Of a stretch of DNA of 64,000 nt, positions 15,005-57,465 are shown piece by piece. The stretch spans positions 3,909 to 67,908 of the forward strand of contig SFJE01000004.1 of NCBI GenBank assembly GCA_004555175.1, in the 5' to 3' direction. The notes under the pieces were generated by a model. It was given only the letters and a program-made list of their open reading frames with translations. It did not search any database and was not told where the DNA came from. Every line of letters begins with the position of its first letter. Position 1 is the stretch's first letter. This stretch comes from Lentisphaeraceae bacterium (GTDB lineage: Bacteria; Verrucomicrobiota; Kiritimatiellia; RFP12; DVOR01). The translations under genes were made by a program, and so were the position numbers.

Positions 15005-15080
15005 GATGACAGATGACAGCGCGCGTGCCGCGGCGGGCAATCTGGGGGCGTCTATCATCTGTCTTCTGCCCTCTGTCATC
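15005..15080. repeat. CTGTCAT/GATGACA heptamer arrays in inverted orientation, upstream of pilT
   Basis: gatgacagatgacag at 15005-15019 and catctgtcttctgccctctgtcatc at 15056-15080. Same heptamer family as 22280, 22388, 31972, 42132 and 49415. Confidence 0.7.
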
Positions 15081-15097: not shown

Positions 15098-16888
15098 TTA
15101 CTCCTTGAGGGAGTCGATGGTGGGTTCGAAGCCGGCATCACCGGGCTCCTTGAGCTCACCGCTCTGGATCTTCTTGGAGAGGACCGCATTCTTGGGCATG
15201 CCGATGTCGCTGGGCAATTCCTTGGGATTGGCCACGCCAACGGTCACGAAGATGACGATCTCATCTTGGGTTTTCTCGCGGGACTTCCAGCCGAAGAGGC
15301 GCGGACCAATCCAGGGGATGTCGCGCAGCAGCGGGATGCCAGAGTCGATATTCGCCTCGCGCGATTCACTCAGGCCGCCGATGACGGCGGTGGTGCCATC
15401 CTGCATCGTGAAGCGGGTGGTCAGGCGCTGGGTCTTGATGATCGGGTAGGTGGCGTAGATGGCGCCATCGGTGCCCGAGCCCTTGAGGGTGGATTCGCCC
15501 GTCTTCTCCGAGACGGTCGGCACGATGTCCACGGTAATCAGACCATCGGGGCTGACGCGCGGGAGGACATTGAGGGTGATGCCGTAGGAGAAGTAGGCCT
15601 GGCCCACCCAAGGCTCGGCGTGCTCATCCTGCTTGCCAGGGATGGTCGAGAGCTTGGTGGAGATGTCCAGCTGGTTGTTGTTATCGCCCGTGCGGGAGGT
15701 GGTCACCTCGATGCAGGGCTCCTTGTCGGTCATATCCACAATCGCCGGACGCTCGTTGGCCACGATGATCTTCGGGTTGGAGAAGATCGAGGCGCCGTCC
15801 ATCTCTTCAATGGCCTGCAGCGTCACCGCCATCTGGCCCATGGTCATCGACCCAGTCAGGCCGCGGAAGTGCGCGTTGTCATAGATGCCATAGGGATTGG
15901 CGCTCTCGGTGATGAAGGGCACCTTCTCGCCATCAACGGAGGTCGCCGCGCCAGGCCATTTCCCATTGGTGCGGCTCAGACCGCCGGAGATGGGCCCAAC
16001 GGAGGTGGTCCAGCCGTTGGCCAGCGAATCCCACTTCATGCCCAGCTTCTTGCTGGCACCTGCGCTCAGGCGGGCGAAGCGCGCCTCGATGTAAATCTGC
16101 GGCACGGGCTTATCGATCTGGGCGATAATCTTCTCGCATTCGGCCACGATCTCTTCGCTGGCCTTGACAACGACCACATTGGCGGCCGGGAAGGCGTTGG
16201 CGATCTGGCTATCCTTGGTGCCGTAGGCGCGGTTGAAGACGTCGGCAATTTCGGTGGAGGAGGCGTGCTTGAGCTGCAGGGGCTTGGTAATCGTCGGGAT
16301 GACGGTGTTCTTGGCCACAACGGTGTAGATGCTGCTGCCGGGGGGCGTCTCCTTGAGGCTCAGGTCGGCCGTGTCGAGGATGGAGGCCAGACCCTGACGC
16401 CAGGAGACCTTCTCCAGCTTCACACTCACGTGCTGGGCCAGGTTGGGGTGGTTGCCGGCGATGATGTTTGCTTCGCTCACATCGCGAAAGGCCTTGATGA
16501 CATCGGCGATGGTCACATCGTCGAAGCTCAGGGAGATCTCCTTGTCGTTGGTGACATTGGTGGGGAGCGTCTCGGGCTCGTCGGCCAGGACCACGCCGGT
16601 CTTGGTCTCCAACACGCCGGTTTCGGCGGCGGGGGCGACCTCGGCGGGGGCCTCAGCAATGGCAGGCGCCTCTTCGGCGGGCACTTCGGCGGGCGCTTCG
16701 TCGATGGGCTCGGCAGCAGGCGCTTCGGCCGGGGCGGCCGCGGGCTCTTCAGCCGGGGCGTTAGCCTCGTCATCAAGCAGCACCACCACCTCTTCGGTGG
16801 CAGCAGCGGCCTGGGCGAGCAGGTGCGGGGCCGAGAGAATGGCGGCGACCGCAACGAGGAGGAAGAACGGCGTTAAACGCATCTTCAT
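15098..16888 (-). CDS. secretin (PilQ/GspD family) with A/P/E-rich N-terminal linker
   Basis: Signal peptide. Low-complexity PAEEPAAAPAEAP region. N0/N1-like domain ISLSFDDVTIADVIKAFRD. C-terminal secretin domain GIPLLRDIPWIGPRLFG...VIFVTV. Confidence 0.9.
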   Translation of the reverse strand: MKMRLTPFFLLVAVAAILSAPHLLAQAAAATEEVVVLLDDEANAPAEEPAAAPAEAPAAEPIDEAPAEVPAEEAPAIAEAPAEVAPAAETGVLETKTGVVLADEPETLPTNVTNDKEISLSFDDVTIADVIKAFRDVSEANIIAGNHPNLAQHVSVKLEKVSWRQGLASILDTADLSLKETPPGSSIYTVVAKNTVIPTITKPLQLKHASSTEIADVFNRAYGTKDSQIANAFPAANVVVVKASEEIVAECEKIIAQIDKPVPQIYIEARFARLSAGASKKLGMKWDSLANGWTTSVGPISGGLSRTNGKWPGAATSVDGEKVPFITESANPYGIYDNAHFRGLTGSMTMGQMAVTLQAIEEMDGASIFSNPKIIVANERPAIVDMTDKEPCIEVTTSRTGDNNNQLDISTKLSTIPGKQDEHAEPWVGQAYFSYGITLNVLPRVSPDGLITVDIVPTVSEKTGESTLKGSGTDGAIYATYPIIKTQRLTTRFTMQDGTTAVIGGLSESREANIDSGIPLLRDIPWIGPRLFGWKSREKTQDEIVIFVTVGVANPKELPSDIGMPKNAVLSKKIQSGELKEPGDAGFEPTIDSLKE

Positions 16889-16902: not shown

Positions 16903-17379
16903 TTAGTTGGTGGGGGTTGTGGTCTCATCCGCCGCTGCAATCCGCACGGACTTCAGGGGCTTGAGCAGGAGTTCCTGGTTACTACCTTCACGTAGGCGCC
17001 AGGTAAAGCGGTAGTCTTGGTAATCTAAGGTGACGGCATCGCCAGCCGAGTAACCTTTGCCATTGATATAGATAACTTGGCGCAACACGCCATCCGAGCC
17101 GCGCGCGCGACTTTGGCCGGAGATCTTCACGTGCTTGCGCGCTTCTAGCCACAGGGCCAGCGGTGCAATGTCCGAGGGCTTGGGGGGCGGCGGCGCCTCT
17201 GGTTTTTGCTCAGCCTGAGGTTCGACCGGTTTTTCCACGGGCTGGACCGGGGCTTCGACTTTAGGCTTGGGCGGCTCCCAGCCAATCGGCCAGAAGGGGT
17301 CGCGCCACTCGGCCGCGCAGAGCGGCAAGGCTGCGAGGGCCGCGAGGGCGGCCAGATGGAGGCGGATAGGGCAACTCAT
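16903..17379 (-). CDS. PilP-like pilus assembly lipoprotein (putative)
   Basis: 158 aa with signal peptide, Pro-rich linker (PPKPKVEAPVQPVEKPVEPQAEQKPEAPPPPKP) and a small C-terminal beta domain. Positioned immediately upstream of the secretin as in pilMNOPQ. Confidence 0.55.
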   Translation of the reverse strand: MSCPIRLHLAALAALAALPLCAAEWRDPFWPIGWEPPKPKVEAPVQPVEKPVEPQAEQKPEAPPPPKPSDIAPLALWLEARKHVKISGQSRARGSDGVLRQVIYINGKGYSAGDAVTLDYQDYRFTWRLREGSNQELLLKPLKSVRIAAADETTTPTN

Positions 17380-18026
17380 CGGCGGCCTCCCTTCGCTGCG
17401 GGCATCAGCTCTTTCTTGGTCTTACCCTTGGCAGGCCACTCCACAATCATCTGCACGGCATGGACCTGCGGGTCGTTGGTGGGGATGATGCGCATCGCGG
17501 AGAGGGTGGCCAGCGGATAGGTATCCTCCAGCTTCTCCACGAACTCCATCATCTGGCGGTAGCTGCCCGTGCCGGTGCAGGTGATGAGCTGGCGCGCCTG
17601 CAACTGTTCGGGCACGCCCGCCTTCGGCACCGGCAACATCCGCTGGGAGTGCTCGGCAAACTGCGCGATGGCAAAGCCGGTCTTGTCGGTCAGCGGGTCG
17701 AGCAAGGCCTTGCAGCGCATCGCGTAGGAGTTCAGCAGCGGGGTCAAGTAGCCCTCACCCTCCAACGCCTTCAGCTGTGCCTCAAGTTCCTGCACCGCCT
17801 TATCGGTCAGCGGCTGGCGGCGGACCAACTTCTCCATCGATTCTTGCTTGCCCAGGCGCGCCTGGGCTTCGTTGCGGGCCTGGTCGAGCGCCTCCTGCTG
17901 GCCGGTCACGAGGAACTGCCAGAGCGCGCCGGCCACAAGGATCAATCCCACCGCCACGGCGAAGGCCCGGCGTTTGGAGTTCCCGAAGAACGCGAGCAAC
18001 TGCTCGCCGGTCAAACCCTGGCTCAT
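17376..18026 (-). CDS. PilO-like inner-membrane pilus assembly protein (putative)
   Basis: Single TM (AFAVAVGLILVAGALW), coiled-coil, then periplasmic domain. Start probably MSQGLT at 18026, overlapping the PilN stop. Overlaps the PilP-like start (ATGA). Confidence 0.55.
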   Translation of the reverse strand: MSQGLTGEQLLAFFGNSKRRAFAVAVGLILVAGALWQFLVTGQQEALDQARNEAQARLGKQESMEKLVRRQPLTDKAVQELEAQLKALEGEGYLTPLLNSYAMRCKALLDPLTDKTGFAIAQFAEHSQRMLPVPKAGVPEQLQARQLITCTGTGSYRQMMEFVEKLEDTYPLATLSAMRIIPTNDPQVHAVQMIVEWPAKGKTKKELMPAAKGGRR

Positions 18027-18691
18027 TCGAAGACCCTCCGCTTGAGCGTGCACTCCACATCGAATCGGAAGAACTCCTGGCCGCTGCCGCCCCGGGCATC
18101 CTGTTCCTGGCGGAAGGCACCCTTGGGCACCGTTGCGGTCTCAATCATCTCGCGGAAAGCCGGCGCACGCAGCACCCCCAAGAGCTTATCGAGCGAGGCG
18201 GCATCCAGCGTGCGCCCGGAGAGGCGCAGGCGGACGGACTCCTCCGGCGAGTTCGGCCCAAAGCTCGGCGGCGCCTTCTTGCCCCGTTGGGCGGGCGCAC
18301 CGATGACCTGCGGCGGCGGCTCAACGAGTTCAAGCTGCGTCAGTTGGATGGTTGCTGGGATCTGCTCGGCCAACTTGCGCAGGAAGACGCCATAGCGGGC
18401 GGCACCGTGACGGTAGAGTTCCACCTGTGCCAGCTGCTGCTTGAGCTCCTGCTCGCGCCCGGTGGCCTCGGTGGCGCGCTTGAAGGCGGCCTGCAACTGG
18501 GAGATTGCCTCGTCGGCTGCACGCGTCTGACTTTGGGCCATCAGCGTCTGCGTCCACAGCCAGGCCCACCAGAGCGCCACACCCGCCACCACGACGGCGG
18601 CGAAGACCGGCGCCATCACATGCAAGCGCACGCGGCTGGAGGAGACGCGCTCCTCATCGCGCAAGAGATTTAGGTGAATGGCATTATTCAT
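18023..18691 (-). CDS. PilN-like inner-membrane pilus assembly protein
   Basis: Start MNNAIHLNLLRDEER follows a GGAGG RBS at 18691. The conserved PilN N-terminal INLLP-like motif is followed by a single TM (VFAAVVVAGVALWWAWLW). Overlaps the PilM stop by 8 nt. Confidence 0.65.
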   Translation of the reverse strand: MNNAIHLNLLRDEERVSSSRVRLHVMAPVFAAVVVAGVALWWAWLWTQTLMAQSQTRAADEAISQLQAAFKRATEATGREQELKQQLAQVELYRHGAARYGVFLRKLAEQIPATIQLTQLELVEPPPQVIGAPAQRGKKAPPSFGPNSPEESVRLRLSGRTLDAASLDKLLGVLRAPAFREMIETATVPKGAFRQEQDARGGSGQEFFRFDVECTLKRRVFE

Positions 18692-19697
18692 CGCGGGCCT
18701 CCTCCAGAACGGCGAGGGCGCCGCCGATGGCCGGCCACAGCGCAGCCTCCTCTTCGGCCGAGGCCGGGGTGGCGGTGCGCGGCTTGGCAAAACCGGCGAG
18801 CGGAGTCGGGGCCGCGAGCGTCAGCGCGCTGCCCGAGCGTTCGGCCACGGTGAGCCACAGGGGGGCCAAGTGCGCGGGCACGCCAAAGAGCAACCCGCAG
18901 GTGGGGGCCCCTTCAAAGCGCTGGGCCACATAGTCCACCGCCAGGCCAATCTGCCGGAAGAGCGGCTGGAGGACCGGCTCAAGGAGCGGCAGGGGGTCGA
19001 CCAACTGCTCTTCAATCATGCTCTGCAGCAGCGCCGGTTCGATGCCTAGCCCCGACGCGAGCGCTTGGGTGACGGTCTCGTTGCCAAGGGCTTGCTCGCG
19101 CACCAGCACCGGGCGGTTCTGCTGATAGGCCATCAGGAGCGTACGCTGCGCTTCAACGATGAGCACCACAGCCGTGCCGCCGGCGCGCTCAAACTCCGGC
19201 ACCGCCAAGGGTGCATTCAAGAGCGCGGCCTGGGCCACTTGAATGGAGCAGGCGGTGGGCTGGTGCCCCTCCGGGAGCAAGCGCGAGAGCCAGAGCACCT
19301 GATACTCGGGCAACGAAGCTTCCAGACAGAGATCCGGCGGCATCGCCAACTTCACCGCCTGGCGCTGACCATTGACGGCCTGCGCTTGGGCATCGGCTGC
19401 CGGGGCTTGACGCTGCGTCAGGCGCAGCACCGCCTCCGGCGCGGTGGCCACGAGGGCCGCGTGGGGCGACTGAAAGGGTGGGGGCAGGGACCAGGTGATA
19501 GCCTTGCGAGCGTTCTCCCAATCGGCGGGTAGGGCCCCGGGGAGGTCGATCACGGCGGCGGCGAGGAGTTCGCGCTTGCCGCCCTTGGTCTGCAGCCGCA
19601 CGGCGGCCACCTTCCCTTCGGGCAAGTGCCCGAGGGCGAGGCCGACAACATCGGTGGGTGTGCGGCGCTTGAGGAGGTTGGGTTTTGCCTTGGCCAT
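18684..19697 (-). CDS. PilM-like actin-fold pilus assembly protein (putative)
   Basis: Start MAKAKPNLLKRR at 19697 follows an AGGAAG RBS; upstream track ORF sequence is out of context. ~337 aa cytoplasmic protein at the pilM position, directly upstream of PilN/O/P/secretin. Confidence 0.55.
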   Translation of the reverse strand: MAKAKPNLLKRRTPTDVVGLALGHLPEGKVAAVRLQTKGGKRELLAAAVIDLPGALPADWENARKAITWSLPPPFQSPHAALVATAPEAVLRLTQRQAPAADAQAQAVNGQRQAVKLAMPPDLCLEASLPEYQVLWLSRLLPEGHQPTACSIQVAQAALLNAPLAVPEFERAGGTAVVLIVEAQRTLLMAYQQNRPVLVREQALGNETVTQALASGLGIEPALLQSMIEEQLVDPLPLLEPVLQPLFRQIGLAVDYVAQRFEGAPTCGLLFGVPAHLAPLWLTVAERSGSALTLAAPTPLAGFAKPRTATPASAEEEAALWPAIGGALAVLEEARDE

Positions 19698-19701
19698 TGC
19701 G

Positions 19702-22212
19702 TTACTTCCTTGCCGAGGTGGGCGAGAGGCGCACGCCAAAGACCTTGTAGGTCTTGCCGCCGTGGACGTTGCGGAAGGGGGCCGAGGTGATGAGCCCATT
19801 GCGGTAGGGCGTGCCCGGCGGGATTTCGGCCAAGACGGCCCACTGCGGGGCGCTGGCATCGGGCTTGGCGAGGATTTGGATGTAGCCATTGGGCGCGGCA
19901 CCGAGCGTGCCCATGCCATCGAAGGGCTCGACCATCACCGTGGCCTCAATGCGGTTATTACCCACGCGCCGCACCTCAGCCACGCCGAAGTTGCAGAGAT
20001 ACTGGGCCGAGATGGCTCCCCCAATCAGCGAAGCCTGCGGCCGCAGATTAAGCAGATAGGCCACATTGACCGCCTGTCCGGCATCCATCTCCGGCGTTTC
20101 GGAGGTGGAGCCCTCGAGGGTCAGGCGCAAATCGCCAGCGGCGGAGCGCCCGCGCAAGGCGGCGGCCGTTACGAAGCTGAGTGCTTCGGGGCTCGGCTTG
20201 ACGGTGGCCTCGGAGCCATCGGGGTTGAGGAGCTTGATGTTGAGGTTGCCCATCGCCACGGCATAGGGCACATTGAGCGAGAGGGTGTTGCCCTCCAGCA
20301 CCAGCTCGCAGCCCTCGGGAATATCAGAGCCCATTAAGAAGTCATCGTCCGAGAGGGTGTCCGAGCAGACCTGCCAGGTGAGGATGGGGTTCTTGCCGCC
20401 CTTCATCCCGGTGGGATTGCCGGTAATAATGAGGCTCGAGCCGTGCTGCATTGCCAAGAGCGAGAGGCTTGTCACCTTCCCCGGGGCAATCTCCAACTGT
20501 GCGCCATCCAAGAAGATGCAGCTGCCAGTCACCTTCCCGCCGCCGGCGAGCGTGCCGCCCTTGGCCACAATCAGGTTGCCCGTGCTGCGGATGGTCTGGG
20601 CCTTCAACACCGCATCGCCCTCAATCTGGAGCGACTGCAGCGGCGCAATCGTCAGCTCTTGGGCCTGATGGAGACCATTGGTCAGGCGCACCGGCGCCTG
20701 CACCGTGAAGTTCCGGGAGAAGCTGCCGCCGCTCATCTCCACATTGCCGCCATTGACCAGCAGATCTAGCGGCTTGTTTGGAGAACCCAGCGTGGCGTCC
20801 ACCTTTAGCCCCGAGAGGTGCGGCACCACCCACTTCGTCTGCCCGGTGGGGTCAGCCGTCCGCCCGAGGGTGAGCAAGGGGGCCTCCTGCTGGGTCCAGA
20901 TGCGCCCAGCCACCGTGCCAGTGGCGGCCAGCGTGGTGGGACCGGTCATCTCGATGGCGCTCTCGAGCGTGGCACCAGACTCAATGCGCAGGGCGCCAAA
21001 GCCCTCGCGGTTCAGCTCGCCGCCGCCACTTACGCCAATTTGCGGCGCATCAAAGGCGCCCTGGCCCACCACATAGAGCTGCACGCCCGGGGAGAGAACC
21101 AGCCGCGCCTCGGGGCCGAGCAAAAGCCCGTTGCTGCGTAGCTTCTTCCCGGCGCCTTGGCGCGTGGCATCATCCACCACCACCACCTCGCCCTCAAAGG
21201 TCTGCGCGTTGAGCGTGACCGTAAGGTCAGAGAAGGGGCAGCTAATCTCGATGCGCCCGTGGCCATCAATGGTCAGCGGCTTGGGGTTCCCTGCCTGCGC
21301 CGGCTGAATCCGCAAGGTGCCGCCCTTGAGCGTATGCTGCCACTCCGGGAGCGGCCCCTGCTTGGGCGCCAAGACGCACGAGCCATCAGGAGCGGCTGCC
21401 GGGAGCTCTACGGAAGGCTTTGCCTTCGCCGGTTCGGCCTCCCGCTCGGCCACAGTGGCCTTCACCACCGGCTTGCCTGCCGGCGGGGTTGCGGAAGTTC
21501 CAGACCAGGCGCAGACCTCATCCAGCCGCTCGTAGAGCCCCGGTTTGACGCCCGAGGCTGCGCCGTCACCGTCGCGCCCCGTACCGAGCACCAATTCTGT
21601 CAGCCTGTCATCGGGTCCGTGCTCGGCCGGGACCTTAAGCCGCTCGACTTCGGTGCCGTCAACAAACAGCACGAAGCTCTCATCCATGTAACAAAGGCGA
21701 ATATCGTACCACTGCTCGAGCTCGAGCTTGTTCTTCTCGTGCCAACGGGTCATCCCCTGCACGAGGTTCTGGCCGGCGTTGCGAAAGAGGGCCATCGTGA
21801 TGGGGTTGTTGCTCTTGGGCTCGGCCACCTGCTCGAGGCGGTAGTTGTGCTTGCCAAAGCGAAACCCAAGGATTGGGCGCCAACGCATCCGGCTGCGCGG
21901 CCGCAGACGGAAGGCAATCGTCCACCCCTCCTTCGCCCGCAGCCCTTCAATGCCACTAACCACCCCATAGCGCGTTCCCTGCGCGTTGGAAAAGACCTCT
22001 AGCGCGCTCACCCCCAGTTCATCCATCGAAGGCTTGACCGCCTTCCCCGCCTGCGGACCTTGCAGGACGAAGCTGAGCTTCGGCTTGCCAGACTCCGAGA
22101 CCACCTGATCCACTGCCCCTGGATTGAATGAACATCGCACAGCCACTTCGGCCGGCAGCAACCCTGCCAGCCCCACGGCCAACGCTAAGAAAATCTGTTG
22201 GTCAATCTGCAT
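19702..22212 (-). CDS. large secreted protein (836 aa) with N-terminal LamG/concanavalin-like region and Gly/Thr-rich beta-helix-like repeats; first gene of the pilM-secretin operon
   Basis: Signal peptide MQIDQQIFLALAVGLAGLLPAEVA. A WTIAFRLRP...LCYMDESFVLFVDGTEVERL LamG-like block. Long G/T/L-rich repeats (GGTLAGGGKVTGS). Ends 5 nt before the PilM-like start. Confidence 0.6.
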   Translation of the reverse strand: MQIDQQIFLALAVGLAGLLPAEVAVRCSFNPGAVDQVVSESGKPKLSFVLQGPQAGKAVKPSMDELGVSALEVFSNAQGTRYGVVSGIEGLRAKEGWTIAFRLRPRSRMRWRPILGFRFGKHNYRLEQVAEPKSNNPITMALFRNAGQNLVQGMTRWHEKNKLELEQWYDIRLCYMDESFVLFVDGTEVERLKVPAEHGPDDRLTELVLGTGRDGDGAASGVKPGLYERLDEVCAWSGTSATPPAGKPVVKATVAEREAEPAKAKPSVELPAAAPDGSCVLAPKQGPLPEWQHTLKGGTLRIQPAQAGNPKPLTIDGHGRIEISCPFSDLTVTLNAQTFEGEVVVVDDATRQGAGKKLRSNGLLLGPEARLVLSPGVQLYVVGQGAFDAPQIGVSGGGELNREGFGALRIESGATLESAIEMTGPTTLAATGTVAGRIWTQQEAPLLTLGRTADPTGQTKWVVPHLSGLKVDATLGSPNKPLDLLVNGGNVEMSGGSFSRNFTVQAPVRLTNGLHQAQELTIAPLQSLQIEGDAVLKAQTIRSTGNLIVAKGGTLAGGGKVTGSCIFLDGAQLEIAPGKVTSLSLLAMQHGSSLIITGNPTGMKGGKNPILTWQVCSDTLSDDDFLMGSDIPEGCELVLEGNTLSLNVPYAVAMGNLNIKLLNPDGSEATVKPSPEALSFVTAAALRGRSAAGDLRLTLEGSTSETPEMDAGQAVNVAYLLNLRPQASLIGGAISAQYLCNFGVAEVRRVGNNRIEATVMVEPFDGMGTLGAAPNGYIQILAKPDASAPQWAVLAEIPPGTPYRNGLITSAPFRNVHGGKTYKVFGVRLSPTSARK

Positions 22213-22236
22213 ACTATTGAACTCCTTGCGTTTCTA

Positions 22237-22252
22237 TGCAAACTTCGTGCCA
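22237..22252 (-). promoter_or_regulatory. sigma-54 (RpoN) promoter, -24/-12 elements TGGCACG-aagt-TTGCA, upstream of the 19702-22212 operon
   Basis: Reverse complement of 22231-22260 reads gcgcggtTTGGCACGAAGTTTGCAtagaaa, an exact match to consensus TGGCACG-N4-TTGCW. An AGGAG RBS and ATG at 22212 lie ~20 nt downstream. Confidence 0.8.
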
Positions 22253-22261
22253 AACCGCGCA

Positions 22262-22416
22262 CCTACGGTGCTTGGTTAGCGGACAGCCGACAGCGGACAG
22301 CTGACAGCGCTGGCGCTCGATGTGCAAAACCCGTCTGAGCCGTGAGCGCAACACGATAGGCCGGCGGTTTGTCCGTCGCGTTAGCGGCTGTCCGCTGTCG
22401 GCTGTCCGCTGTCCGC
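22262..22416. repeat. ~150-bp composite element: 4x CNGACAG heptamers, conserved core, 4x CTGTCNG heptamers (inverted); copy A
   Basis: Left arm cggacagccgacagcggacagctgacag (22280-22307). Right arm ctgtccgctgtcggctgtccgctgtccg (22388-22415). Core blocks cagcgctggcgctcga, cccgtctgagccgtga and tccgtcgcgttagcggctgtc are shared with copy B at 31861-32000. Confidence 0.8.
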
Positions 22417-23237
22417 TAGAGGTTAAAAAGGCTATCCTCAAAGCCGCCGTCGTCGGAGGGGGTGGCGGGGGGATCGGCGGTGGGCTCGAGGGCGTGGGCC
22501 ACCGCTTCGCTCAGCCCATCGATGGGGGCGATGGGGGAATCTTGCTCAAAGAGCGAGACAATCTCATCGGCGTGGTTGGCCGTCTTGCGATACTGCTCGG
22601 TGGCGTAGTGGCGCTTCTCGTTGAGCTTTTGGAGGAGATCGCGGATTTCGATGGCCGCCTCGTAGCACATCTCGGTCATCTCCTTGCGCCCGGCCTCGTC
22701 CACCAGATTTAGGCGCATCATCTCCACGCTACTCATCAGCACGGTCATCGGCTGACCAATCGCATGGCAGATGGTGCCAAAGCTCTCCATCATCACGCGC
22801 TGACGCTCCCGCTCGCGCTCCAGGCGCACATCCTGCCACATTGCCGCCGCATCGCGCAAGACAATGACCGCCCAGCGTGGCGGCTGCCCCTGCGCGCCCA
22901 TCTCTTTGGGGGTGGCATTGACTTCCAGCGTCACCTTGGGCTGGGTGAGCTCGGCGGGTTTGGGCGCCTGCCACAACTTCCCGGCGCGCAAGGCTTCCAT
23001 CATCGGCGCAATCCACGCCGGGTTTGGGAACCAGCGCGTGAGCGGCGCCCCCACCGGCAGGCCCCCCTCTGGCTGCGGAAAGAGTTCGCGCCAGACGCTA
23101 TTGGCGTAGAGCAATGGCCCCTCCGGGCTCGTTAATTCGATTACGCAGACGGCCACATTTGCGCGTTCAAGCCCCACATCGAGCATCTCATAGTAGGTTG
23201 CCGGCGGCTTGGGCCGGTCAAATCCAAAGGACATCAT
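22416..23237 (-). CDS. PAS-like + HisKA-like domain protein lacking an HATPase_c domain
   Basis: 273 aa. RERERQRVMMESFGTICHAIGQPMTVLMSSVEMMRL resembles a histidine-kinase H-box dimerisation domain. No N/G1/G2 ATP-binding boxes follow; the C-terminus is an acidic tail. Confidence 0.5.
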   Translation of the reverse strand: MMSFGFDRPKPPATYYEMLDVGLERANVAVCVIELTSPEGPLLYANSVWRELFPQPEGGLPVGAPLTRWFPNPAWIAPMMEALRAGKLWQAPKPAELTQPKVTLEVNATPKEMGAQGQPPRWAVIVLRDAAAMWQDVRLERERERQRVMMESFGTICHAIGQPMTVLMSSVEMMRLNLVDEAGRKEMTEMCYEAAIEIRDLLQKLNEKRHYATEQYRKTANHADEIVSLFEQDSPIAPIDGLSEAVAHALEPTADPPATPSDDGGFEDSLFNL

Positions 23238-23722
23238 ACCCCTTCCTCCTCGTCAACTTCAAGCCATACTTCGTCTAATGTTTCTTCTTCTTCTTCGGCG
23301 GCGGCTTCAGCCGCCTGCGCTTCGGCCAACTCCCGAGCCTGCTGCGCCTCCAACTGCCGGTAGAGTTCTAGGGCAACTGGCCGCTCTCGCGGTAAATCCC
23401 CTTGGTCACTTACCAGCGAGCAGGTTACCGGCCGCCCGGGGTCCCCGAGCGTATAGACCCCACCATTGGGGCATGGGGGCAATTGCCCCGCGTGCAAGAG
23501 CCGCGAGAGGGCATCGTCTCCAAACATCTCCGCCTGTCGCTTGGCCATCGAGAGCTCCCAGCGCTTCATCACGCACCGCTCCCGCGCCTCTTCCGTCCGA
23601 ATCCGGCCGGCCTGCTCCCAACTCCAATAGCCCCCCAACGCCCCCATCACCCCGATAAAAGAAAGCGGCAGCCACCAAGTCCGCGGCCAAATCTGCTGCG
23701 TCTGTGCTGCCGTTTCGGACAT
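23234..23722 (-). CDS. hypothetical small membrane-anchored protein with acidic C-terminus
   Basis: 162 aa with one N-terminal TM (WWLPLSFIGVMGALGGYW) and C-terminal EEEEETLDEVWLEVDEEEGV. Stop overlaps the downstream start (ATGA). Confidence 0.45.
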   Translation of the reverse strand: MSETAAQTQQIWPRTWWLPLSFIGVMGALGGYWSWEQAGRIRTEEARERCVMKRWELSMAKRQAEMFGDDALSRLLHAGQLPPCPNGGVYTLGDPGRPVTCSLVSDQGDLPRERPVALELYRQLEAQQARELAEAQAAEAAAEEEEETLDEVWLEVDEEEGV

Positions 23723-23737
23723 TGCTGCCCCTTCCGA

Positions 23738-23772
23738 AAGTTAAAAGGGCGACCTTCACGCGAAGGTCGCCC
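23738..23772 (-). terminator. rho-independent terminator downstream of the pilin gene
   Basis: Perfect 11-bp stem gggcgaccttc/gaaggtcgccc with 4-nt loop. On the minus strand it is followed by CTTTTAACTTT. Lies ~30 nt after the pilin stop. Confidence 0.75.
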
Positions 23773-23799
23773 CTTCCCAAAGGAGTTCAATCGGGAAGA

Positions 23800-24156
23800 T
23801 TAGTTGGTCGCATCTTCAGGGAGGACGTGGCCCTTCGGACATGAGGTCTTATAGCGGCCGGTGCCATCATCGGCTGGCATCGTATAGGAGCTGTTAGCGT
23901 CAGACGGGCATCTCATCTTGCTGATGGAGATCTTAAGATACTGATTCAGGTGGGTAGCGTCCACGGCTTCCCCATTAATCAAGCACTGCTCAGCAGCGGC
24001 TTCAATCTGCTTCATATTGGCAATGCAGGCGTTCTTCTGGGAGGTCTGCCTAGAGCGGACGAAGTTCGGGACGGCGATGGCGGCGAGGATGCCGATGATC
24101 GCGACCACGATCATAATTTCAACGAGCGTGAAGCCCTGCTTCAACTGCTTATTCAT
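23800..24156 (-). CDS. type IVa major pilin (PilA-like; prepilin with short leader and C-terminal disulfide loop)
   Basis: True start MNKQLKQ|GFTLVEIMIVVAIIGILAAIAVPNF is a classic class III signal with a 7-aa leader. Mature length ~111 aa. Two C-terminal Cys (CPSDANSSYTMPADDGTGRYKTSCP). The ORF in the track extends upstream to 24342 through out-of-context sequence. Confidence 0.85.
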   Translation of the reverse strand: MNKQLKQGFTLVEIMIVVAIIGILAAIAVPNFVRSRQTSQKNACIANMKQIEAAAEQCLINGEAVDATHLNQYLKISISKMRCPSDANSSYTMPADDGTGRYKTSCPKGHVLPEDATN

Positions 24157-24230
24157 TGTGCGAGTACCTTTCTGTACGGTAGCGTGACTATCGAACTGAC
24201 TTGGCACACGCCAAGCTGTCTTTCCTCCTT

Positions 24231-24246
24231 TGCAATGGGCGTGCCA
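24231..24246 (-). promoter_or_regulatory. sigma-54 promoter TGGCACG-ccca-TTGCA driving the pilin gene
   Basis: Reverse complement of 24226-24250 reads gatTTGGCACGCCCATTGCAaaggag. An AT-rich tract (24250-24350, candidate IHF bend) and palindromic repeats (24378-24457) lie upstream, as in enhancer-dependent promoters. Confidence 0.8.
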
Positions 24247-24377
24247 AATCAGGAAGGGCGGGAACTTTTTTGCGCTTCGCTCAAAAGCAGTCTCCCGATT
24301 TCTCATTCCTGTAAAGAGGTTTCTTAGTTTTAAGAATGGCAATTCTCGGGAATGAGAAAAATCCCTTCTCGAAATGG

Positions 24378-24457
24378 CCCAGGGCCTACCCCACCTCGAG
24401 GTAGGGCCTGGGTCACCTTGAGGTAGGGCCTACCCCGCCTCGAGGTAGGGCCTGGGG
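24378..24457. repeat. nested palindromes of the CCTACCTCGAGGTAGG family (candidate UAS / REP-like element)
   Basis: cccagggcctaccccacctcgaggtagggcctggg forms a ~16-bp stem. It is followed by ttgaggtagggcctaccccgcctcgaggtagggcctggg. Confidence 0.8.
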
Positions 24458-24464
24458 GAGGGGG

Positions 24465-24654
24465 GGAAGGGCGCGGCCATTGAAGTGGCCGGGGGTTTTG
24501 AGCCAGGCGCTCGCTTCGCTCGCTGCGCGGCAAATATGCCGCGCCACGGAACCGTTAACGGCAGGAGGAGGGCTGGCCTTTCGGTAAGGGGCTTCCGAGC
24601 CGGGCGGGCGGAGGCCAGGGCGCGGCCATTGGAGCGGCCGGGGGGCTTGAGCCA
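24465..24654. repeat. ~40-bp direct repeat pair (gggcgcggccattgRagYggccggggg..ttgagcca) in G-rich non-coding region
   Basis: Copies at 24465-24505 and 24615-24654 in an ~870-bp stretch with no credible ORF. Track ORFs there are P/R/A-rich frame artefacts. Confidence 0.6.
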
Positions 24655-25029: not shown

Positions 25030-28000
25030 TCACGCGAGCAGGCAGCAAGCGATGGCGTGACCGAAGAGGATGGAGGTTTTGATGGGGATGAGCTTCCCGC
25101 GCAGGTGGGGGAAGTTATCGGCCCACGCGCCGAGGAGTTCCATCTGGAGCATGCCAGTGGCGGCTTCGGAGGAGCGAATCCGGAGGTCGGTGGGGGCGAA
25201 GCGGATGCCGGTGCCGAGGGCCTTGGAGATAGCCTCCTTGGCGCACCAGAAGCGGAGGATGGCGGTGGGTCCGTCGCCGCTCTTGGTAGCGAGCTCCTGC
25301 TCCTCGAGGGTGAAGACACCGCGGAGGAAGTCCTCGGTGAGGTCGCGATCGACCGATTCGACGTCGAGGCCGATATGGCCGTGGAGGACGCTTGCGCCGA
25401 GGATGAGGCCGGCGGTGTGGGCGATGGTGAGGTCGAGCGGGGCCGAGACCTGGCTCTGCCATTCGCCGACGGGGTGGGGCTTGCCGAGGGCATCCTTCCA
25501 GATAGCGATGTCGGCGGCCGGTTCGTAGAGGTTGAAGTTCTGGAGGAGGAGGCGGCGGACCGACTCCTTGGCGGCGGTTCGGCCGAGGAGCCATTCGAGG
25601 CGGCGGTGGGCGGTACCGCCCATCTGGGCGAAGTTCTCGCGCTCGTTGTGGGTGAGGACGGCGGCGGCGAGGGCCTTGAGCCAGAGCTCCTGGTTGGAGA
25701 CGAAGAAGTCGGGCGCGTCGTTGACGTAGAGGGCGCCGACGACCTCGGCGGTGGGGTCGGGTAAGAGGGTGGCAGGGAGAGGCTGGGTGATGAAGAACTT
25801 GGCCGGGTTCATCACGAAGTCGCGCAAGGCGCGTCCGGCGCGGCCGCTCATCTCCTCCCAGGCCTCGATGGCAAGGATGGGGTGACCGGCGGTGTCGGTG
25901 ACCTGGATGTCGACCTGGAAGGAACGTGGGGTGACGTTGACCAGGCGCAGAGCGCAGCGCAGGCGGGTGCCCTCGGGGACCCAGACGGCGTAGTAGCGGA
26001 TGGATTGGCAGCGGAAGGGGAGGGAGATGGCGCCGTGGAAGCGCTCGTGCGAACGCCAGAGGGGGAAGCCGGAGACCACCGCGTCGAGCAAGAGGGGCAT
26101 GGCGGTGAAGAGGGGGTTGCGGCTGGCGCGGACGGTGGCCGAGCGCGAGGGGATGCGCAGCTCGTAATCGAGGCCGTTGTAGCCCCAGCCCGAGACATGG
26201 CGGACGTTGCGCAGGAGGGGACCCTGGAAGAGGCGGCCGGGGTAGATTTCGCGCGCGTCCCAGTTCACCTGCTTGGGGGCGACGAGGGGCTGGAGTTCGC
26301 CTGCCTCCGGGGCCTCGGGCACGGCCGGGGCAAAGGTGAAGAGCGCCTCCATCACGGGGTGGACCGCTTCGCCCTCGCTTGCGTCGGTACTTAGGCGGAC
26401 GCGGAGGGTAGTCTGGCCTTCGAGCTCGGTGGGCGCGTCGTGGGAGAGGGCGACGCTGATACGCAGGTCGATTTGGCCAAAGTCGAAGGAGAGCCAACGC
26501 GGGGCGCGCAGGTGGGTGATGGCGCAGAGGACGGGGTTGCCCGAACGGCCGGAGGCCGAGGCGAGGAGGAGGCGCTGGGCGGCCTCGGCCATCACCTCCA
26601 GGCCGGTGGGCACGGAGAAGAGGGTCAGGCCGCGCATCTGCGGATCGCTGAGCGAGACGCCCGAGGTGCCGATGGCGTAGTCATTCAGGAAGGGGAAGTC
26701 CTCCAGACGCAGCGAGCAGCGCAGCTCCAGGCGCTCGGCGGTGCGCTCGAGCTCTTGGGCGGTGCGCAGGAGGGGGCCGACGAGGCCGGTGGCGGGGAAG
26801 TTGGAGGGCAGGGCGTGAGCGTGGGTGGCCTGGGTGGCCTCCTCGGCCAAGGCGTTCTCCATCCCGAGGATGCGGTGGGCATCGATGAGTTCGGGGCGGA
26901 TGGCCGGGAGCTCGCGGGTCAGGCGCAGGGTGAGGGTCTCGCTCTCGCCCTCGGCCAAGGGCGTATCGAAGTCCAGCCGCTGGGCGTGGGCGAAGAAGCG
27001 TAGGCCCGAGTAGTCAATCGGCACGCCGTGGGCAGCCAGGAGGCCGGCGGCTTGGCCCACCTGCACGCCACCCGAGCGGTGGAGGATGTGCATCGGGATG
27101 GTGGCAATCGGCTCCTCGCGGCCGGCCAAAATCTTGGCAATGAGCGGCGAGAGGAGGCCGCGGGCACCCACTTCTACAAAGAGGCGGCAGCCGCTCGCGT
27201 ACATTGCCTCGATCATTTGGCGGAAGTGGAGCGGCTCGGCCATTTGGTCGACGAGCGCGCTGACGACCGAGGAGGTGGAGTGACCCATCGGCTGGGCGGT
27301 CACGGCGGAGAAGAAGGTGACCTGCGGCTCGCAGGTGACATATTTGGAGAAGAAGCGCTCGAAGATTTGGCGCAGGCGGATGTCGCGCGCGCCGGTGTTG
27401 AAGGGGGCGAGGAGCGGTTCGGCCACGGAGAGGCCGCCGCCTTCGGCGATGGCGGCTTCCACGGTGGCCCGGTAATCGGGCGCCACGGCCAGGACGCAAT
27501 CGTCGGCGGTCAACTCCTGGGCCACCACCAGTTGCCCATTCGAGGTGGCGGCGAGCGCGCGCAGCTTCTCCACGGCAAAGCCCGAGACGGTCAGTTGCAG
27601 CCAAGGCGTGGCAGTTTCGGTGCCCAGGCGCAGGAGCATCTTGCCGGCATCGCGCAGAATCTGCACCAGGCGCAGCTTGGGATCGTGGTGCGTGGCGTGG
27701 AAGGCCGAGAAGGCGCCGAGCCCCACGCCGCCCACGGCCGCCGGTTGGACGCCTACGCCGCGGAGGAAGTCGGCAAAGACCTTACTGGCGAGGTAGGTGG
27801 AGGCGGAGGCGAGGAGGGGGAGGAAGTCGCGCGAGGCACTGAGGGGGAGGGTGTGCTCGGGGGCGGTGGAGAAGAGCCACTCGGAGGGGGAGGCCACATC
27901 GCAGAAGCCGGCGAAGGCCTCCTCCATATCGTCGAAGCGCTCGCGCACGCCATCGAAGGTAAGGGCTAGGTCGCGCATCATCTCCAGATGGAAGGAGCCG

Positions 28001-28338
28001 GTGCCCGGGAAGATGAAGGCCACCTTGCCGCCCTCGAGGGCCAGCGGACGCGTGGTAAAGAAGATGCCCGACTTATCGCGCAGCCGCGTGCGGCCACTAC
28101 GCAGCGCGTTGAGGGCCATCGTCAGCTTGCGCGCCATCTCCTCGAGCGAGGCCACCCACAGCCCCACCACGCACTGCTTGCCGCGCGCATCCCGGGTGGC
28201 GGTGTAGACCACATCTATCAGCCGCACCCCGCGGCTGCGTTCCAGGAAGGATTGCACGCGTAGGATTTCGGCCTCCAGGCCGCTGAGGTCGCCCGCGCCA
28301 ATCAGGCAGAGGACGCCTTCGGAGCGTTCCAGGCTCAT
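25030..28338 (-). CDS. type I PKS-like multidomain protein: KS-AT linker, acyltransferase-like, dehydratase-like, C-terminal Sfp-type 4'-phosphopantetheinyl transferase; several catalytic motifs appear substituted
   Basis: N-terminal post-KS linker, then FIFPGTGS (AT GQGSQ-like). The GHSxG position reads GVGLG. DH motif is GPLL...FPFLNDYAIGTSGV, i.e. HxxxG with Tyr in place of His. C-terminal PPTase motifs RRLEWLLGRTAAKES, IGLDVESV and FWCAKEAISKALGTG. No ACP DSL motif found. Confidence 0.65.
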   Translation of the reverse strand: MSLERSEGVLCLIGAGDLSGLEAEILRVQSFLERSRGVRLIDVVYTATRDARGKQCVVGLWVASLEEMARKLTMALNALRSGRTRLRDKSGIFFTTRPLALEGGKVAFIFPGTGSFHLEMMRDLALTFDGVRERFDDMEEAFAGFCDVASPSEWLFSTAPEHTLPLSASRDFLPLLASASTYLASKVFADFLRGVGVQPAAVGGVGLGAFSAFHATHHDPKLRLVQILRDAGKMLLRLGTETATPWLQLTVSGFAVEKLRALAATSNGQLVVAQELTADDCVLAVAPDYRATVEAAIAEGGGLSVAEPLLAPFNTGARDIRLRQIFERFFSKYVTCEPQVTFFSAVTAQPMGHSTSSVVSALVDQMAEPLHFRQMIEAMYASGCRLFVEVGARGLLSPLIAKILAGREEPIATIPMHILHRSGGVQVGQAAGLLAAHGVPIDYSGLRFFAHAQRLDFDTPLAEGESETLTLRLTRELPAIRPELIDAHRILGMENALAEEATQATHAHALPSNFPATGLVGPLLRTAQELERTAERLELRCSLRLEDFPFLNDYAIGTSGVSLSDPQMRGLTLFSVPTGLEVMAEAAQRLLLASASGRSGNPVLCAITHLRAPRWLSFDFGQIDLRISVALSHDAPTELEGQTTLRVRLSTDASEGEAVHPVMEALFTFAPAVPEAPEAGELQPLVAPKQVNWDAREIYPGRLFQGPLLRNVRHVSGWGYNGLDYELRIPSRSATVRASRNPLFTAMPLLLDAVVSGFPLWRSHERFHGAISLPFRCQSIRYYAVWVPEGTRLRCALRLVNVTPRSFQVDIQVTDTAGHPILAIEAWEEMSGRAGRALRDFVMNPAKFFITQPLPATLLPDPTAEVVGALYVNDAPDFFVSNQELWLKALAAAVLTHNERENFAQMGGTAHRRLEWLLGRTAAKESVRRLLLQNFNLYEPAADIAIWKDALGKPHPVGEWQSQVSAPLDLTIAHTAGLILGASVLHGHIGLDVESVDRDLTEDFLRGVFTLEEQELATKSGDGPTAILRFWCAKEAISKALGTGIRFAPTDLRIRSSEAATGMLQMELLGAWADNFPHLRGKLIPIKTSILFGHAIACCLLA

Positions 28339-29735
28339 CGGTCAACCTCCTCAAGCACGGCCGCGCCGGCGCGTCCTTTGGCCGAGAGGGTGGAGACGGC
28401 CAGGCGCCGGGGCCGCGTGGAGGAGGCGATCCACGGCCGCGCCTCCTGCACCCAGTAGTAGGCCTGCTCGGGTTCGCGCAGGCGGAAGCTCTCATCCACT
28501 GGGGTGACCGAGGGCGGCAGCACGCGGTGGCTGATGGCGAGGATGCCCTTGAGCAGTCCCAGAGCTCCGGCGGCGGTAAAGGTGTGGCCAAAGGAGGTCT
28601 TGGCCGAGCCGAGGGCTAGGAGGGGAATGTGCGCGCCGCGGTTGGCGGTCATCCGGTGCAAGATGGCCTCCTCGGCAGCATCTTCGGCGGGGATGCCCGA
28701 GCCATTCATCTCCCAGTAGTCGATGTCGCGGAAGGCGTTGGGGAGGCGGCGCAGGGCGCGATGGAGGGCGCGGCGGAGGCTTTCGGGGAGACCGCCTTCG
28801 GCCTCTGGGGCAATGCCAGAGATCTGCGCGCAGCCGTGGAGCTTGGCGTAGACATTGGGCGAACCATTCTTCTGGACTTCGGCCAGGCGCCGGAGGATAA
28901 AGGCTGCGCCCCCTTCGCCGGGCAGGGTGCCCACGGTGCTGAGGGTAAAGGGTTTGAGTTCGCGGCCGGGGCAGAAGGGCGTCAGGGCCGCTTCGCCGGC
29001 CAGTTGGGTCTGTGAGAGGGGCGGCTGCAGGGCCACCACGATGGCTACATCGCACTGATTGAGGCGCAGCGCGTTGGAGGCGGCCTCCAGGCAGGCGAAG
29101 ACTGAACTTTCGCCGGCGGCGCACTGGCAGGCGGTGTCGCACGCGCCAAAGGTTTGGGCCAGTTGGCGGACCACGCCTTCGCCGCGCGCGAGTTCCGGTT
29201 GGCGGCGCTTGAGCAGGGGCAAGGTGGCGGTGAGTTCGCCGCGCAGGGCGGCCATTTGCTCGTAGCTGGCGGTGGGGAAGAAGCGCTGGAGGGTGCCGAC
29301 AATCTGGCCGATGACATTCGCGTGCCAGAGCCAGTTGACGGCGGCGGGGTTAAAGCCGGCATCGTAGCCAACGAAGAGGGCCATGCGGTCGGAGTGGCTC
29401 TCGCCGGGGGGAATGCCGGCATCGATGAGGGCGTCGTCAATGAGCTGGGCGGCGAACCAGAAGTCCGTGTTGTCCCCCACGCCCAAATCTGGCGGCAGGG
29501 GCACGCGGTCGGCGCGGACGGCAAAGCGCTCGCCGAGCGCGGCGGAGACTTCGGGGAGGACGCAATCGGGGAAGAGTTCCTCGGCGGTGTGGCCATCGGG
29601 CGCTTCGGGCAGCGGGGTGAAGAAGCTTTGCTTGCGCAGGATTGCCTTCCAGAGAGCCCGCGGGGTGGGCGCACCGCCAAAGCAACCGCTCAGGCCAGTA
29701 AAGACAACGCTATCGGAGAGTGTGAGCATGGCCAA
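28335..29735 (-). CDS. beta-ketoacyl synthase (type I PKS-type KS domain) as separate ORF; first catalytic His apparently Asn
   Basis: N-terminal VVFTGLSGCFGGAPTPRALWKAIL. Active-site Cys in GACDTACQCAAGESS. EMNGSGIP aligns to EAHGTGT. Second His retained in SFGHTFTAAGA. Stop overlaps the downstream start (ATGA). Confidence 0.7.
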   Translation of the reverse strand: MAMLTLSDSVVFTGLSGCFGGAPTPRALWKAILRKQSFFTPLPEAPDGHTAEELFPDCVLPEVSAALGERFAVRADRVPLPPDLGVGDNTDFWFAAQLIDDALIDAGIPPGESHSDRMALFVGYDAGFNPAAVNWLWHANVIGQIVGTLQRFFPTASYEQMAALRGELTATLPLLKRRQPELARGEGVVRQLAQTFGACDTACQCAAGESSVFACLEAASNALRLNQCDVAIVVALQPPLSQTQLAGEAALTPFCPGRELKPFTLSTVGTLPGEGGAAFILRRLAEVQKNGSPNVYAKLHGCAQISGIAPEAEGGLPESLRRALHRALRRLPNAFRDIDYWEMNGSGIPAEDAAEEAILHRMTANRGAHIPLLALGSAKTSFGHTFTAAGALGLLKGILAISHRVLPPSVTPVDESFRLREPEQAYYWVQEARPWIASSTRPRRLAVSTLSAKGRAGAAVLEEVDR

Positions 29736-31837: not shown

Positions 31838-31860
31838 CGGGAGTCCTTTGGGGAGTGAAT

Positions 31861-32000
31861 AGCTGACAGCGGACAGCGGACAGTTACCAGCGCTGGCGCT
31901 CGAGGAGGAAGCCCCGTCTGAGCCGTGAAAACATTCTCATTGGGCCATCAACCTTTCCGTCGCGTTAGCGGCTGTCATCTGTCATCTGTTATCTGTCATC
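31861..32000. repeat. composite heptamer-array element, copy B (CNGACAG x3, conserved core, CTGTNAT x4)
   Basis: ctgacagcggacagcggacag at 31863-31883. Core cagcgctggcgctcga, ccccgtctgagccgtga and tccgtcgcgttagcggctgtc. Right arm ctgtcatctgtcatctgttatctgtcatc at 31972-31999. Homologous to 22262-22416. Confidence 0.8.
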
Positions 32001-32003
32001 TCT

Positions 32004-32255
32004 TCAATACAGCTTCTCAAAGGCGCCTTTGTCGACGCGTTTGAGTTTGTGGAAGCCGGCGGACTTGGCGCGGTCGTCGAGTTTGGATTTGCTGCGGCCG
32101 AGGGCGGGGGCGGAGATGAGTTTGACGATAGGTGCACCGCACTCGGGGCAGGCGGTGAGCGGGGGCTCATCGAGCCGGCGCATGGCCTCGAAGCCCGCGC
32201 GGCAGACTGGGCAGGCGTGCGCGGGGTCCTGGGCCTGATAGTCATACATCGGCAT
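32004..32255 (-). CDS. FmdB-family zinc-ribbon protein
   Basis: 83 aa with MPMYDYQ..CPVC...CPECG, the two CxxC pairs characteristic of the FmdB putative regulatory protein family. Confidence 0.8.
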   Translation of the reverse strand: MPMYDYQAQDPAHACPVCRAGFEAMRRLDEPPLTACPECGAPIVKLISAPALGRSKSKLDDRAKSAGFHKLKRVDKGAFEKLY

Positions 32256-42098: not shown

Positions 42099-42159
42099 AG
42101 GAGAGAGGGCCTGTCCGTCTCGGCACGCGTGCTGTCATCTGTCCTCCGTCATCTGTCAT

Positions 42160-49414: not shown

Positions 49415-49449
49415 GATGGCAGATGGCGGATGACAGATGACAGATGGCA
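49415..49449. repeat. GATGRCR heptamer tandem array (5 units), same family as the CTGTCAT arrays
   Basis: gatggcagatggcggatgacagatgacagatggca, upstream of the DJ-1 gene. Confidence 0.7.
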
Positions 49450-49459
49450 AAGGCGGGAA

Positions 49460-57276: not shown

Positions 57277-57351
57277 GTGGGCGGTGACGGACTCGAACCG
57301 CCGACAGCCTGAGTGTAAATCAGGAACTCTAACCAACTGAGTTAACCGCCC
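57277..57351 (-). tRNA. tRNA-Val (anticodon TAC)
   Basis: Reverse complement folds as a cloverleaf: acceptor gggcggt/accgccc, anticodon loop ttTACac, T-loop ggttcgagtcc. Confidence 0.85.
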
Positions 57352-57373
57352 AATGGGGTGCGGTAGGAGAAAA

Positions 57374-57458: not shown

Positions 57459-57465
57459 TAAAGGA

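Follow-up and report, generated by a model that had tools for sequence, protein, structure and literature searches.

Predicted sigma-54 promoters and regulatory elements of a type IV pilus gene cluster in an uncultured Lentisphaerota bacterium

Control of pilin genes by sigma-54 (RpoN) and an activator of the PilR type is known from Pseudomonas aeruginosa and Myxococcus xanthus. The PilR sites of P. aeruginosa are tandem (C/G)TGTC repeats. The enhancers of NtrC-type activators, such as that of glnAp2, consist of several dyads that lie on one face of the helix ∼80 to 140 bp upstream of the −24/−12 element and are enough for a hexamer. In Geobacter, pilA is both RpoN- and PilR-dependent (PMC2725144). 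In Xanthomonas oryzae pv. oryzae, RpoN2 and PilRX control the expression of pilA, pilC, and pilMNOPQ, and in electrophoretic mobility shift assays RpoN2 bound the pilR, pilA, and pilC promoters only, not the pilM promoter (PMC7170775). Our literature search found no study of such pilus control in the Planctomycetes-Verrucomicrobia-Chlamydiae (PVC) group, here represented by Lentisphaerota. The subject of this work is a 64-kb stretch of DNA from a Lentisphaeraceae bacterium (contig SFJE01000004.1; the whole stretch is hereafter called the window), which carries a type IV pilus gene cluster with two sigma-54 sites, one in front of the major pilin gene and one in front of an operon of pilus assembly genes. 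We estimate the probability at about 0.78 that both sites are genuine RpoN promoters of this cluster, in a Lentisphaerota relative of Candidatus Spyradenecus, and that they work by the mechanism proposed below, which was deduced from DNA sequence and its comparison among relatives.

Two full-consensus sigma-54 sites

The whole window was scanned for the exact pattern TGGCACGNNNNTTGCA (TGGCACG-N4-TTGCA), with shuffled sequences providing the expectation. Two matches were found, both on the minus strand, as compared to an expected 0.01, and none of 100 shuffles reached two. The pilin site is located at 24231–24246 (TGGCACGCCCATTGCA, 19.2 bits) and the second site, which we name the LamG site after the product of the first gene behind it, at 22237–22252 (TGGCACGAAGTTTGCA, 19.8 bits). 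Each contains the GG-N10-GC core within TGGCAC-N5-TTGCW. A sigma-54 matrix weighted after the published consensus, and not a curated one, ranked the same two sites as the top two of the window, and the best match per shuffled window scored 12.6 to 17.3 bits (n = 20). With relaxed sigma-54 patterns, the match counts in the window were at chance level. An earlier reading of this DNA by eye (the sequence-only reading) had reported two full-consensus sites, and the exact matches, their number, and their rank among all scores bear this out.

Both sites are intergenic and lie on the coding strand facing the downstream gene. The strand is thus as the sequence-only reading had it; its distances of 40 to 70 nt to a ribosome-binding site or ATG are somewhat different from those measured here. 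The pilin ATG (24156) lies 75 nt past the motif end, or 90 nt from the motif start, and the LamG ATG (22212) lies 25 nt past the motif end, or 40 nt from the motif start. The AAGGAG ribosome-binding site of the LamG gene (22222–22227) begins 9 nt past TTGCA. Transcription starts were predicted by adding 12 nt to the C of the GC. By this rule, the pilin transcript would start at ∼24220 and carry a 64-nt leader, and the LamG transcript would start at ∼22226, on the first bases of the Shine-Dalgarno sequence AAGGAG. No sigma-70-like site was found upstream of the pilin or the LamG gene.

A third sigma-54-like site at 12655–12670 (minus strand; TGGCAGGGAACTTGCT, 17.3 bits) lies inside the gene for an MshEN/TPR protein, ∼160 nt before the start codon of a kinase gene. 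Since its score is no better than the best shuffled one and orthologues have TGGCTG or TGGCGG in place of its −24 element, this site is probably a chance match.

To place the two sites in an evolutionary context, six lineages were compared: the window, L006, L007, L008, L001, and L004. The identity of the 273-residue protein encoded between the two promoters to its counterpart in the window is 93% in L006, 84% in L007, 81% in L008, 62% in L001, and 55% in L004. Only six homologue clusters of this protein are present in a large protein collection. The contigs that carry a homologue belong to Candidatus Spyradenecus and Lentisphaeraceae bins, one of them labeled Kiritimatiellae, and gene order is kept among them. 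The pilin site reads TGGCACG-N4-TTGCA in all six lineages with spacers that vary (CCCA, GGCA, GGCG, CCCC, and ATAG), and the LamG site reads TGGCA[CT]-N5-TTGCA in all six. The flanks of both sites have diverged while the motifs are kept, and the two sites are the only high-scoring sigma-54 matches in each 12- to 21-kb locus. Taken together, the comparative evidence strongly supports the assignment of both sites as functional sigma-54 promoters. The opposite proposal, that the sites are chance matches or by-products of other constraints, is hardly credible, as it would have to account for two matches where 0.01 is expected, for motifs that are kept in six lineages against diverged flanks, for the correct strand and position of each site, and for the presence of rpoN and a sigma-54 activator in the same window.

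The pilin promoter, its candidate enhancer, and the linked regulator

The gene behind the 24.2-kb site (23800–24156, minus strand) encodes the major pilin, a protein of 118 residues with the prepilin N-terminus MNKQLKQGFTLVEIM. This N-terminus is matched by Pfam N_methyl (E 5.6e-9) and by NCBIfam pilin and pseudopilin models, in agreement with the pilin gene assigned here previously.

Upstream of the pilin promoter, an AT-rich tract contains three 16-bp dyads with the sequence TTCTCA-N4-TGAGAA (24300–24315, 24321–24336, and 24343–24358), which form a candidate enhancer, or upstream activating sequence. With up to two mismatches allowed, this motif has no other match in the 64 kb. In the window, L006, L007, and L008, the distances from the dyad centers down to the T of TGGCAC are 61.5, 82.5, and 104.5 bp, which corresponds to about −87, −108, and −130 relative to the predicted pilin start. 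In L001, the centers are found at 63.5, 85.5, and 107.5 bp, a shift of +2 or +3 bp, and L004 retains only the outer two dyads, at 60.5 and 104.5 bp, though the sequence between them is unrelated. The spacing of 21 to 22 bp places the sites on one helix face, and three dimer sites would be suited to nucleate a hexamer of the activator. An A6 tract (24266–24271, minus strand; about −46 to −51) is located in the interval from the array to the −24 element. An A/T run occupies this position in all six lineages and is possibly an intrinsic bend.

The sequence-only reading had proposed a different architecture, with a palindromic enhancer 120 to 200 bp upstream and a bend made by integration host factor (IHF) in the AT-rich tract. 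The palindromes are real: a cluster of the form GGCCCTACCTCGAGG is located at 24387–24452, 140 to 200 bp upstream of the pilin promoter, and L007 and L008 have such palindromes upstream of the pilin promoter as well. However, the GGCCCTACCTCGAGG family has 16 matches versus 3.7 expected, and its intergenic clusters include 7675–7733 and 63235–63381 in addition to the one near the pilin gene. In L001 and L004, the pilin promoter is kept but has no such palindromes ahead of it. These clusters resemble repetitive extragenic palindromic (REP) elements and appear to be a dispersed REP-like repeat family. No IHF consensus was found near the promoters, in the interval from the palindromes to the pilin promoter, or in that from the dyads to the −24 element, and the AT-rich tract itself harbors the position-locked dyads. 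It is very improbable, in our judgment, that the palindromes serve as the enhancer and the tract as an IHF bend.

The proteins needed for sigma-54-dependent control, which the sequence-only reading had also noticed, are encoded in the window. The rpoN gene (47317–48792, minus strand) has the Pfam AID, CBD, and DBD domains and scores 312 bits with TIGR02395 (cut-off 277). The sigma-54 activator (8386–9774, minus strand), a response regulator encoded 14 kb from the pilin gene, has the Pfam domains Response_reg, Sigma54_activat, and HTH_8, and its translation contains the GAFTGA and Walker A motifs. Its best NCBIfam matches are the NtrC, AtoC, and GlrR models, all below their cut-offs, with no PilR model listed. 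The term PilR-like thus describes its architecture and context and does not stand for proven orthology. Beside it, a hybrid histidine kinase of 904 residues (9783–12497, minus strand) consists of HisKA, HATPase, and a C-terminal receiver, with two transmembrane segments that flank a periplasmic-type domain. This arrangement departs from that of PilS, for which a multi-pass membrane domain and no receiver would be expected.

Because homologues of the 273-residue and LamG proteins are limited to a narrow clade, the wider comparison was carried out via PilM-like proteins, which led to distant clusters at 30 to 42% identity. In two of these, L011 and L015, activator homologues that are 55 to 56% identical, with a conserved HTH region, are encoded directly beside pilin genes or pilM. 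A dyad matrix was built from the window clade, so that its matches within this clade are circular while those in the distant loci are not. In L011, matches to this matrix are present upstream of the first pilin gene, and a pair of matches 22 bp apart is present upstream of pilM. In L014, a dyad is centered 82.5 bp upstream of the sigma-54 site before the pilin gene, which is the distance of the middle site in the window. The joint presence of regulator and dyads in distant loci is evidence, though not proof, that the dyads are bound by the activator linked to the cluster.

Based on these features, we propose that sigma-54 RNA polymerase would wait as a closed complex on each of the two sites. 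At the pilin promoter, the phosphorylated activator would assemble on the three dyads, two helical turns apart, reach the polymerase over the A-tract bend, and melt the promoter near 24220 at the expense of ATP. The resulting leader of 64 nt would start with an invariant, hairpin-forming palindrome, and a hairpin after the pilin stop codon would limit read-through into two small, regulatory-looking genes.

The leader palindrome, CTTGGCGTGTGCCAAG (24200–24215, minus strand), corresponds to about +6 to +21 of the predicted pilin transcript. It is unique in the window and identical in all related loci that span the pilin promoter. Two further invariant blocks, GTTCGA and CAGAAAGGTAC, are present in the leader, and the leader blocks are kept even where the remaining intergenic sequence is unrelated. 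RNAalifold predicted a 7-bp stem at the palindrome with no covariation, as the conserved blocks are invariant, and the single-sequence fold of the leader was not significant (z = −1.2). An Rfam search of 22100–24600 with E values up to 1 gave no match, and when metagenome contigs were searched for the leader pattern, a single one came up, which is probably L009, as its length (33870) is the same. Since invariance gives no covariation, two readings of CTTGGCGTGTGCCAAG stand and are equally possible, which is to say that it may be either a 5′-proximal RNA hairpin or the operator of a sequence-specific protein.

Two observations concern the same palindrome. The opposite strand of CTTGGCGTGTGCCAAG reads TTGGCAC, which is −24-like; a divergent sigma-54 site on that strand (24202–24217, 11 bits) was considered and rejected because the −12 GC is not kept in L001. 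A looser palindrome is found at the same place in the pilin leader of L014.

Directly 3′ of the pilin stop codon, a terminator-like, GC-rich hairpin (23747–23772, minus strand) is followed by UUUU (23743–23746). The 80-nt stretch with this hairpin folds at −38.1 kcal/mol (z = −3.9), and none of 200 shuffles was as stable. A simple terminator scan missed the hairpin because the T run is just four bases long. Hairpins that attenuate read-through are common behind abundant pilin transcripts, and the one described here likely has this effect.

The two genes between the pilin gene and the second promoter are co-oriented with it. The first (23234–23722, minus strand), known from its open reading frame and translation, encodes a protein of 162 residues that has no Pfam or NCBIfam match; its position is kept in related loci. 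The second (22416–23237, minus strand) encodes the 273-residue protein introduced above, which consists of a PAS and a DHp (dimerization and histidine phosphotransfer) part with an invariant His158 and is devoid of an ATPase domain. In the alignment of its homologues, the central 90 residues are almost invariant, and the His is found in the H-box-like context HAIGQPMT. No Pfam match was obtained for this protein. Its AlphaFold model (mean predicted local distance difference test score, pLDDT, 67) has a PAS-like domain and, behind it, a hairpin of two helices, and the best Foldseek matches are LOV-histidine kinases (8a3u and 4gcz; E 5e-7 to 7e-7), aligned over ∼215 columns that include both parts. 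The protein might act together with the hybrid kinase in phosphotransfer or feedback, a role that is attractive because the kinase of the cluster is a hybrid.

The LamG promoter and the assembly operon

On the minus strand, the pilin, 162-residue, and 273-residue protein genes are followed by the second promoter and then by genes for the LamG protein, a 338-residue PilM, three small proteins, and a secretin. Genes for a PilT-like ATPase, the MshEN/TPR protein, the hybrid kinase, and the activator come next on the same strand, and those for PilB and PilC are located further on. The first gene behind the second promoter (19702–22212, minus strand) encodes a LamG-domain protein of 836 residues, whose match to Pfam Laminin_G_3 (E 5e-6, 27.2 bits) is below the cut-off of 27.6. 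The protein has an N-terminal hydrophobic segment and was classed as secreted. Homologues were found in this clade only, and the more distant pilM operons are without a LamG gene. It may serve as an adhesin on the pilus or as an accessory component of the pilus machinery.

The second gene of the operon (18684–19700, minus strand) was assigned by structure, as the 338-residue protein had no significant Pfam match. Its AlphaFold model has a pLDDT of 89, and the top 10 Foldseek matches are all PilM (among them 5eq6, 5eou, 2ych, and 3jc8), with E values down to 3e-16. The three genes that follow on the minus strand encode a PilN-like protein (18023–18790), with a weak Pfam match and a weak match, far below cut-off, to the Amuc_1101 family, a PilO-like protein (17376–18053), and a PilP-like protein (16903–17379). 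Each of the three has one hydrophobic segment near the N-terminus, as expected for PilN, PilO, and PilP. The secretin (15098–16888, minus strand) has a Pfam E value of 2e-30. The operon thus has the PilMNOPQ layout of type IVa pili, with a PilM of actin-like fold, small bitopic proteins, and a secretin in that order. Given the structural match, the label of pilM-secretin operon that had been put on the genes behind the 22.2-kb site is right from PilM to the secretin, except that the LamG gene is first and pilM second.

The LamG promoter is unusually close to its gene. In all six lineages, 9 to 11 nt separate TTGCA from AAGGAG, which places the predicted start on or just before the Shine-Dalgarno sequence and leaves a leader of 11 to 15 nt. 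A similar closeness was found among the distant clusters, where a sigma-54 motif ends 11 to 15 nt short of the start codon with which the pilM-secretin operon opens in L013 (9600–9627), L014 (9972–10001), L015 (9972–10001), and L016 (80–111). The predicted leaders in these four loci are 0 to 6 nt, so that the transcripts would be leaderless or nearly so. In L014 and L015, the −12 element shares bases with a TATAAT sequence, and in L011 a weaker site, TGGCATCATTCCTGCT, was seen by eye 14 nt before the pilM ATG. A text search gave no paper on leaderless sigma-54 transcripts, which is no proof that none are known. The conserved close spacing of promoter and ATG, distant relatives included, argues for a functional start at this place.

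In L014, two sigma-54 motifs are arranged back to back and divergently, at 9923–9938 on the minus strand and 9972–9987 on the plus strand. The minus-strand motif precedes an open reading frame homologous to a 124-residue gene product encoded upstream of pilM in L013, and the plus-strand gene call at the divergent motifs may be a miscall.

Between the 273-residue protein gene and the LamG promoter lies an element of ∼150 nt (22260–22420) with inverted arms of CTGTCNN heptads and a conserved core, whose fold has an energy of −88.7 kcal/mol (z = −5.7). The element is dispersed in the window, with a paralogue at 31845–32010 and partial arms at 15052–15077, 42132–42157, and 49425–49450. At the LamG promoter, it is nearly identical in L006 to L008 and absent in L001 and L004. 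It could be a repeat that resembles miniature inverted-repeat transposable elements, a terminator or insulator, or a small RNA gene, and is no enhancer specific to this promoter; Rfam gave no match for it. Its CTGTC heptads were considered as tandem sites of the PilR kind and rejected in view of its dispersed copies, the paralogue among them, and of its absence from L001 and L004.

Several points weigh against our interpretation. The bit scores depend on matrix weights set after the published consensus and not on a curated matrix. It is unusual for a transcript to begin on its Shine-Dalgarno sequence, and the real start, or the place from which most of the transcript comes, might be a different one. 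No dyad-like sequence was found from −700 to +400 of the LamG promoter in the six lineages. As a hybrid, the kinase may depend on a further phosphotransfer step, and the control by the neighboring kinase and regulator that the sequence-only reading predicted, with this regulator as the activator of the promoters, was deduced solely through gene linkage. Finally, the distant cluster L012 has no sigma-54 site and has a TATAAT-like box instead.

The missing dyad at the LamG promoter leaves three options, namely that the activator bound at the pilin enhancer acts from ∼2 kb away, that activation occurs from solution, or that a different enhancer-binding protein is responsible. The last option can be extended to a proposal in which both sites are real sigma-54 promoters and another enhancer-binding protein drives one or both of them, particularly the LamG promoter. 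We consider this unlikely. It would explain the lack of a dyad in all six lineages and would fit a regulator whose matches are to generic NtrC, AtoC, and ZraR models below their cut-offs. The window is also only 64 kb of a genome, and one activator was found among the open reading frames scanned. However, homologues of this regulator stay linked to pilus genes in spite of rearranged clusters, and the dyad motif travels along with them.

A second proposal concerns the LamG site only, which could bind sigma-54 polymerase and act as a checkpoint or roadblock without being the main productive promoter. Most transcripts of the operon would then begin at a different start or reach it from the pilin promoter by read-through. 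The predicted start on the Shine-Dalgarno sequence with its 11- to 15-nt leader, the lack of an activator site nearby, and the common orientation of all genes from pilin to secretin are consistent with this idea. Read-through would, however, have to pass the strong terminator-like hairpin after the pilin gene and the −88.7 kcal/mol element just upstream of the site, and the conserved closeness of promoter, Shine-Dalgarno sequence, and ATG, together with the motifs 11 to 15 nt before the ATG in distant clusters, speaks for a functional start at the site. We regard this proposal as improbable, and less probable than a second enhancer-binding protein. In the interpretation that we favor, with both sites as RpoN promoters of the pilus cluster, the second promoter, with its start near 22226, would drive the LamG, PilM, PilN/O/P-like, and secretin genes from an mRNA whose 5′ end is the ribosome-binding site, and its activator would be the same protein, from ∼2 kb away or from solution, or another one.

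Two other features of the window were recorded. Upstream of the pilin region, 25030–29735 on the minus strand encodes a 1102-residue protein with a polyketide synthase dehydratase and a phosphopantetheinyl transferase part, as well as a ketoacyl synthase; the equivalent position in L004 is occupied by acyl-carrier and FkbH-like genes. The sole Rfam matches in the whole window were three clustered tRNA genes (57278–57539, minus strand).

Comparison with known systems

The analysis yields a regulatory map, open to testing, for the type IV pilus of an uncultured Lentisphaerota lineage from the gut. Its components are the two promoters, the candidate site for the activator, an element in the leader, and a terminator. 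The mechanism is a textbook one, and the gain is therefore mainly one of annotation. The activator motif, the promoters that abut start codons, and the PAS-DHp gene without a kinase domain are less expected and are offered as leads rather than findings; they deserve follow-up, as does the leader palindrome. These elements could be joined in one reading, in which a pilus regulon common to many PVC-group bacteria would rely on a conserved NtrC-type activator with the previously undescribed dyad TTCTCA-N4-TGAGAA and on start-codon-abutting sigma-54 promoters with leaderless or Shine-Dalgarno-starting mRNAs, the PAS-DHp protein co-transcribed with pilin would link the hybrid kinase to the activator, and the leader palindrome would be a new cis-regulatory element. 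As a whole, this reading is doubtful.

Within the PVC group, the closest counterpart is the Akkermansia cluster Amuc_1098–1102, which is likewise type IV pilus-like, with divergent PilM- and PilN-like proteins and a secretin; the passages of its description that were consulted contain no mention of sigma-54 control (PMC4960237).

As in the control of pilA by PilS-PilR and RpoN, the pilin gene described here has a −24/−12 promoter, and a regulator of the REC/AAA+/HTH type is encoded in or beside the pilus cluster. The kinase differs, as PilS is a six-helix protein and the kinase of this cluster is a hybrid whose periplasmic domain comes with two transmembrane segments. The candidate activator site differs as well, since it is a TTCTCA-N4-TGAGAA dyad present three times and thus unlike the sites of P. 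aeruginosa PilR. With the NtrC enhancer of glnAp2, the array shares the arrangement of several dyads on one face; the site sequence is different, and binding at the dyads is a prediction. Similar to RpoN2-PilRX of Xanthomonas, sigma-54 and a PilR-type activator would serve both the pilin gene and other pilus units. Unlike in Xanthomonas, the assembly operon has a full-consensus sigma-54 site of its own, with the LamG gene placed first. On the whole, the comparison suggests that this cluster works like the sigma-54 control of pilin in Geobacter and Xanthomonas, a conclusion that is well supported and ordinary, and would extend a form of pilus control known mainly from Proteobacteria and their relatives to the PVC group.

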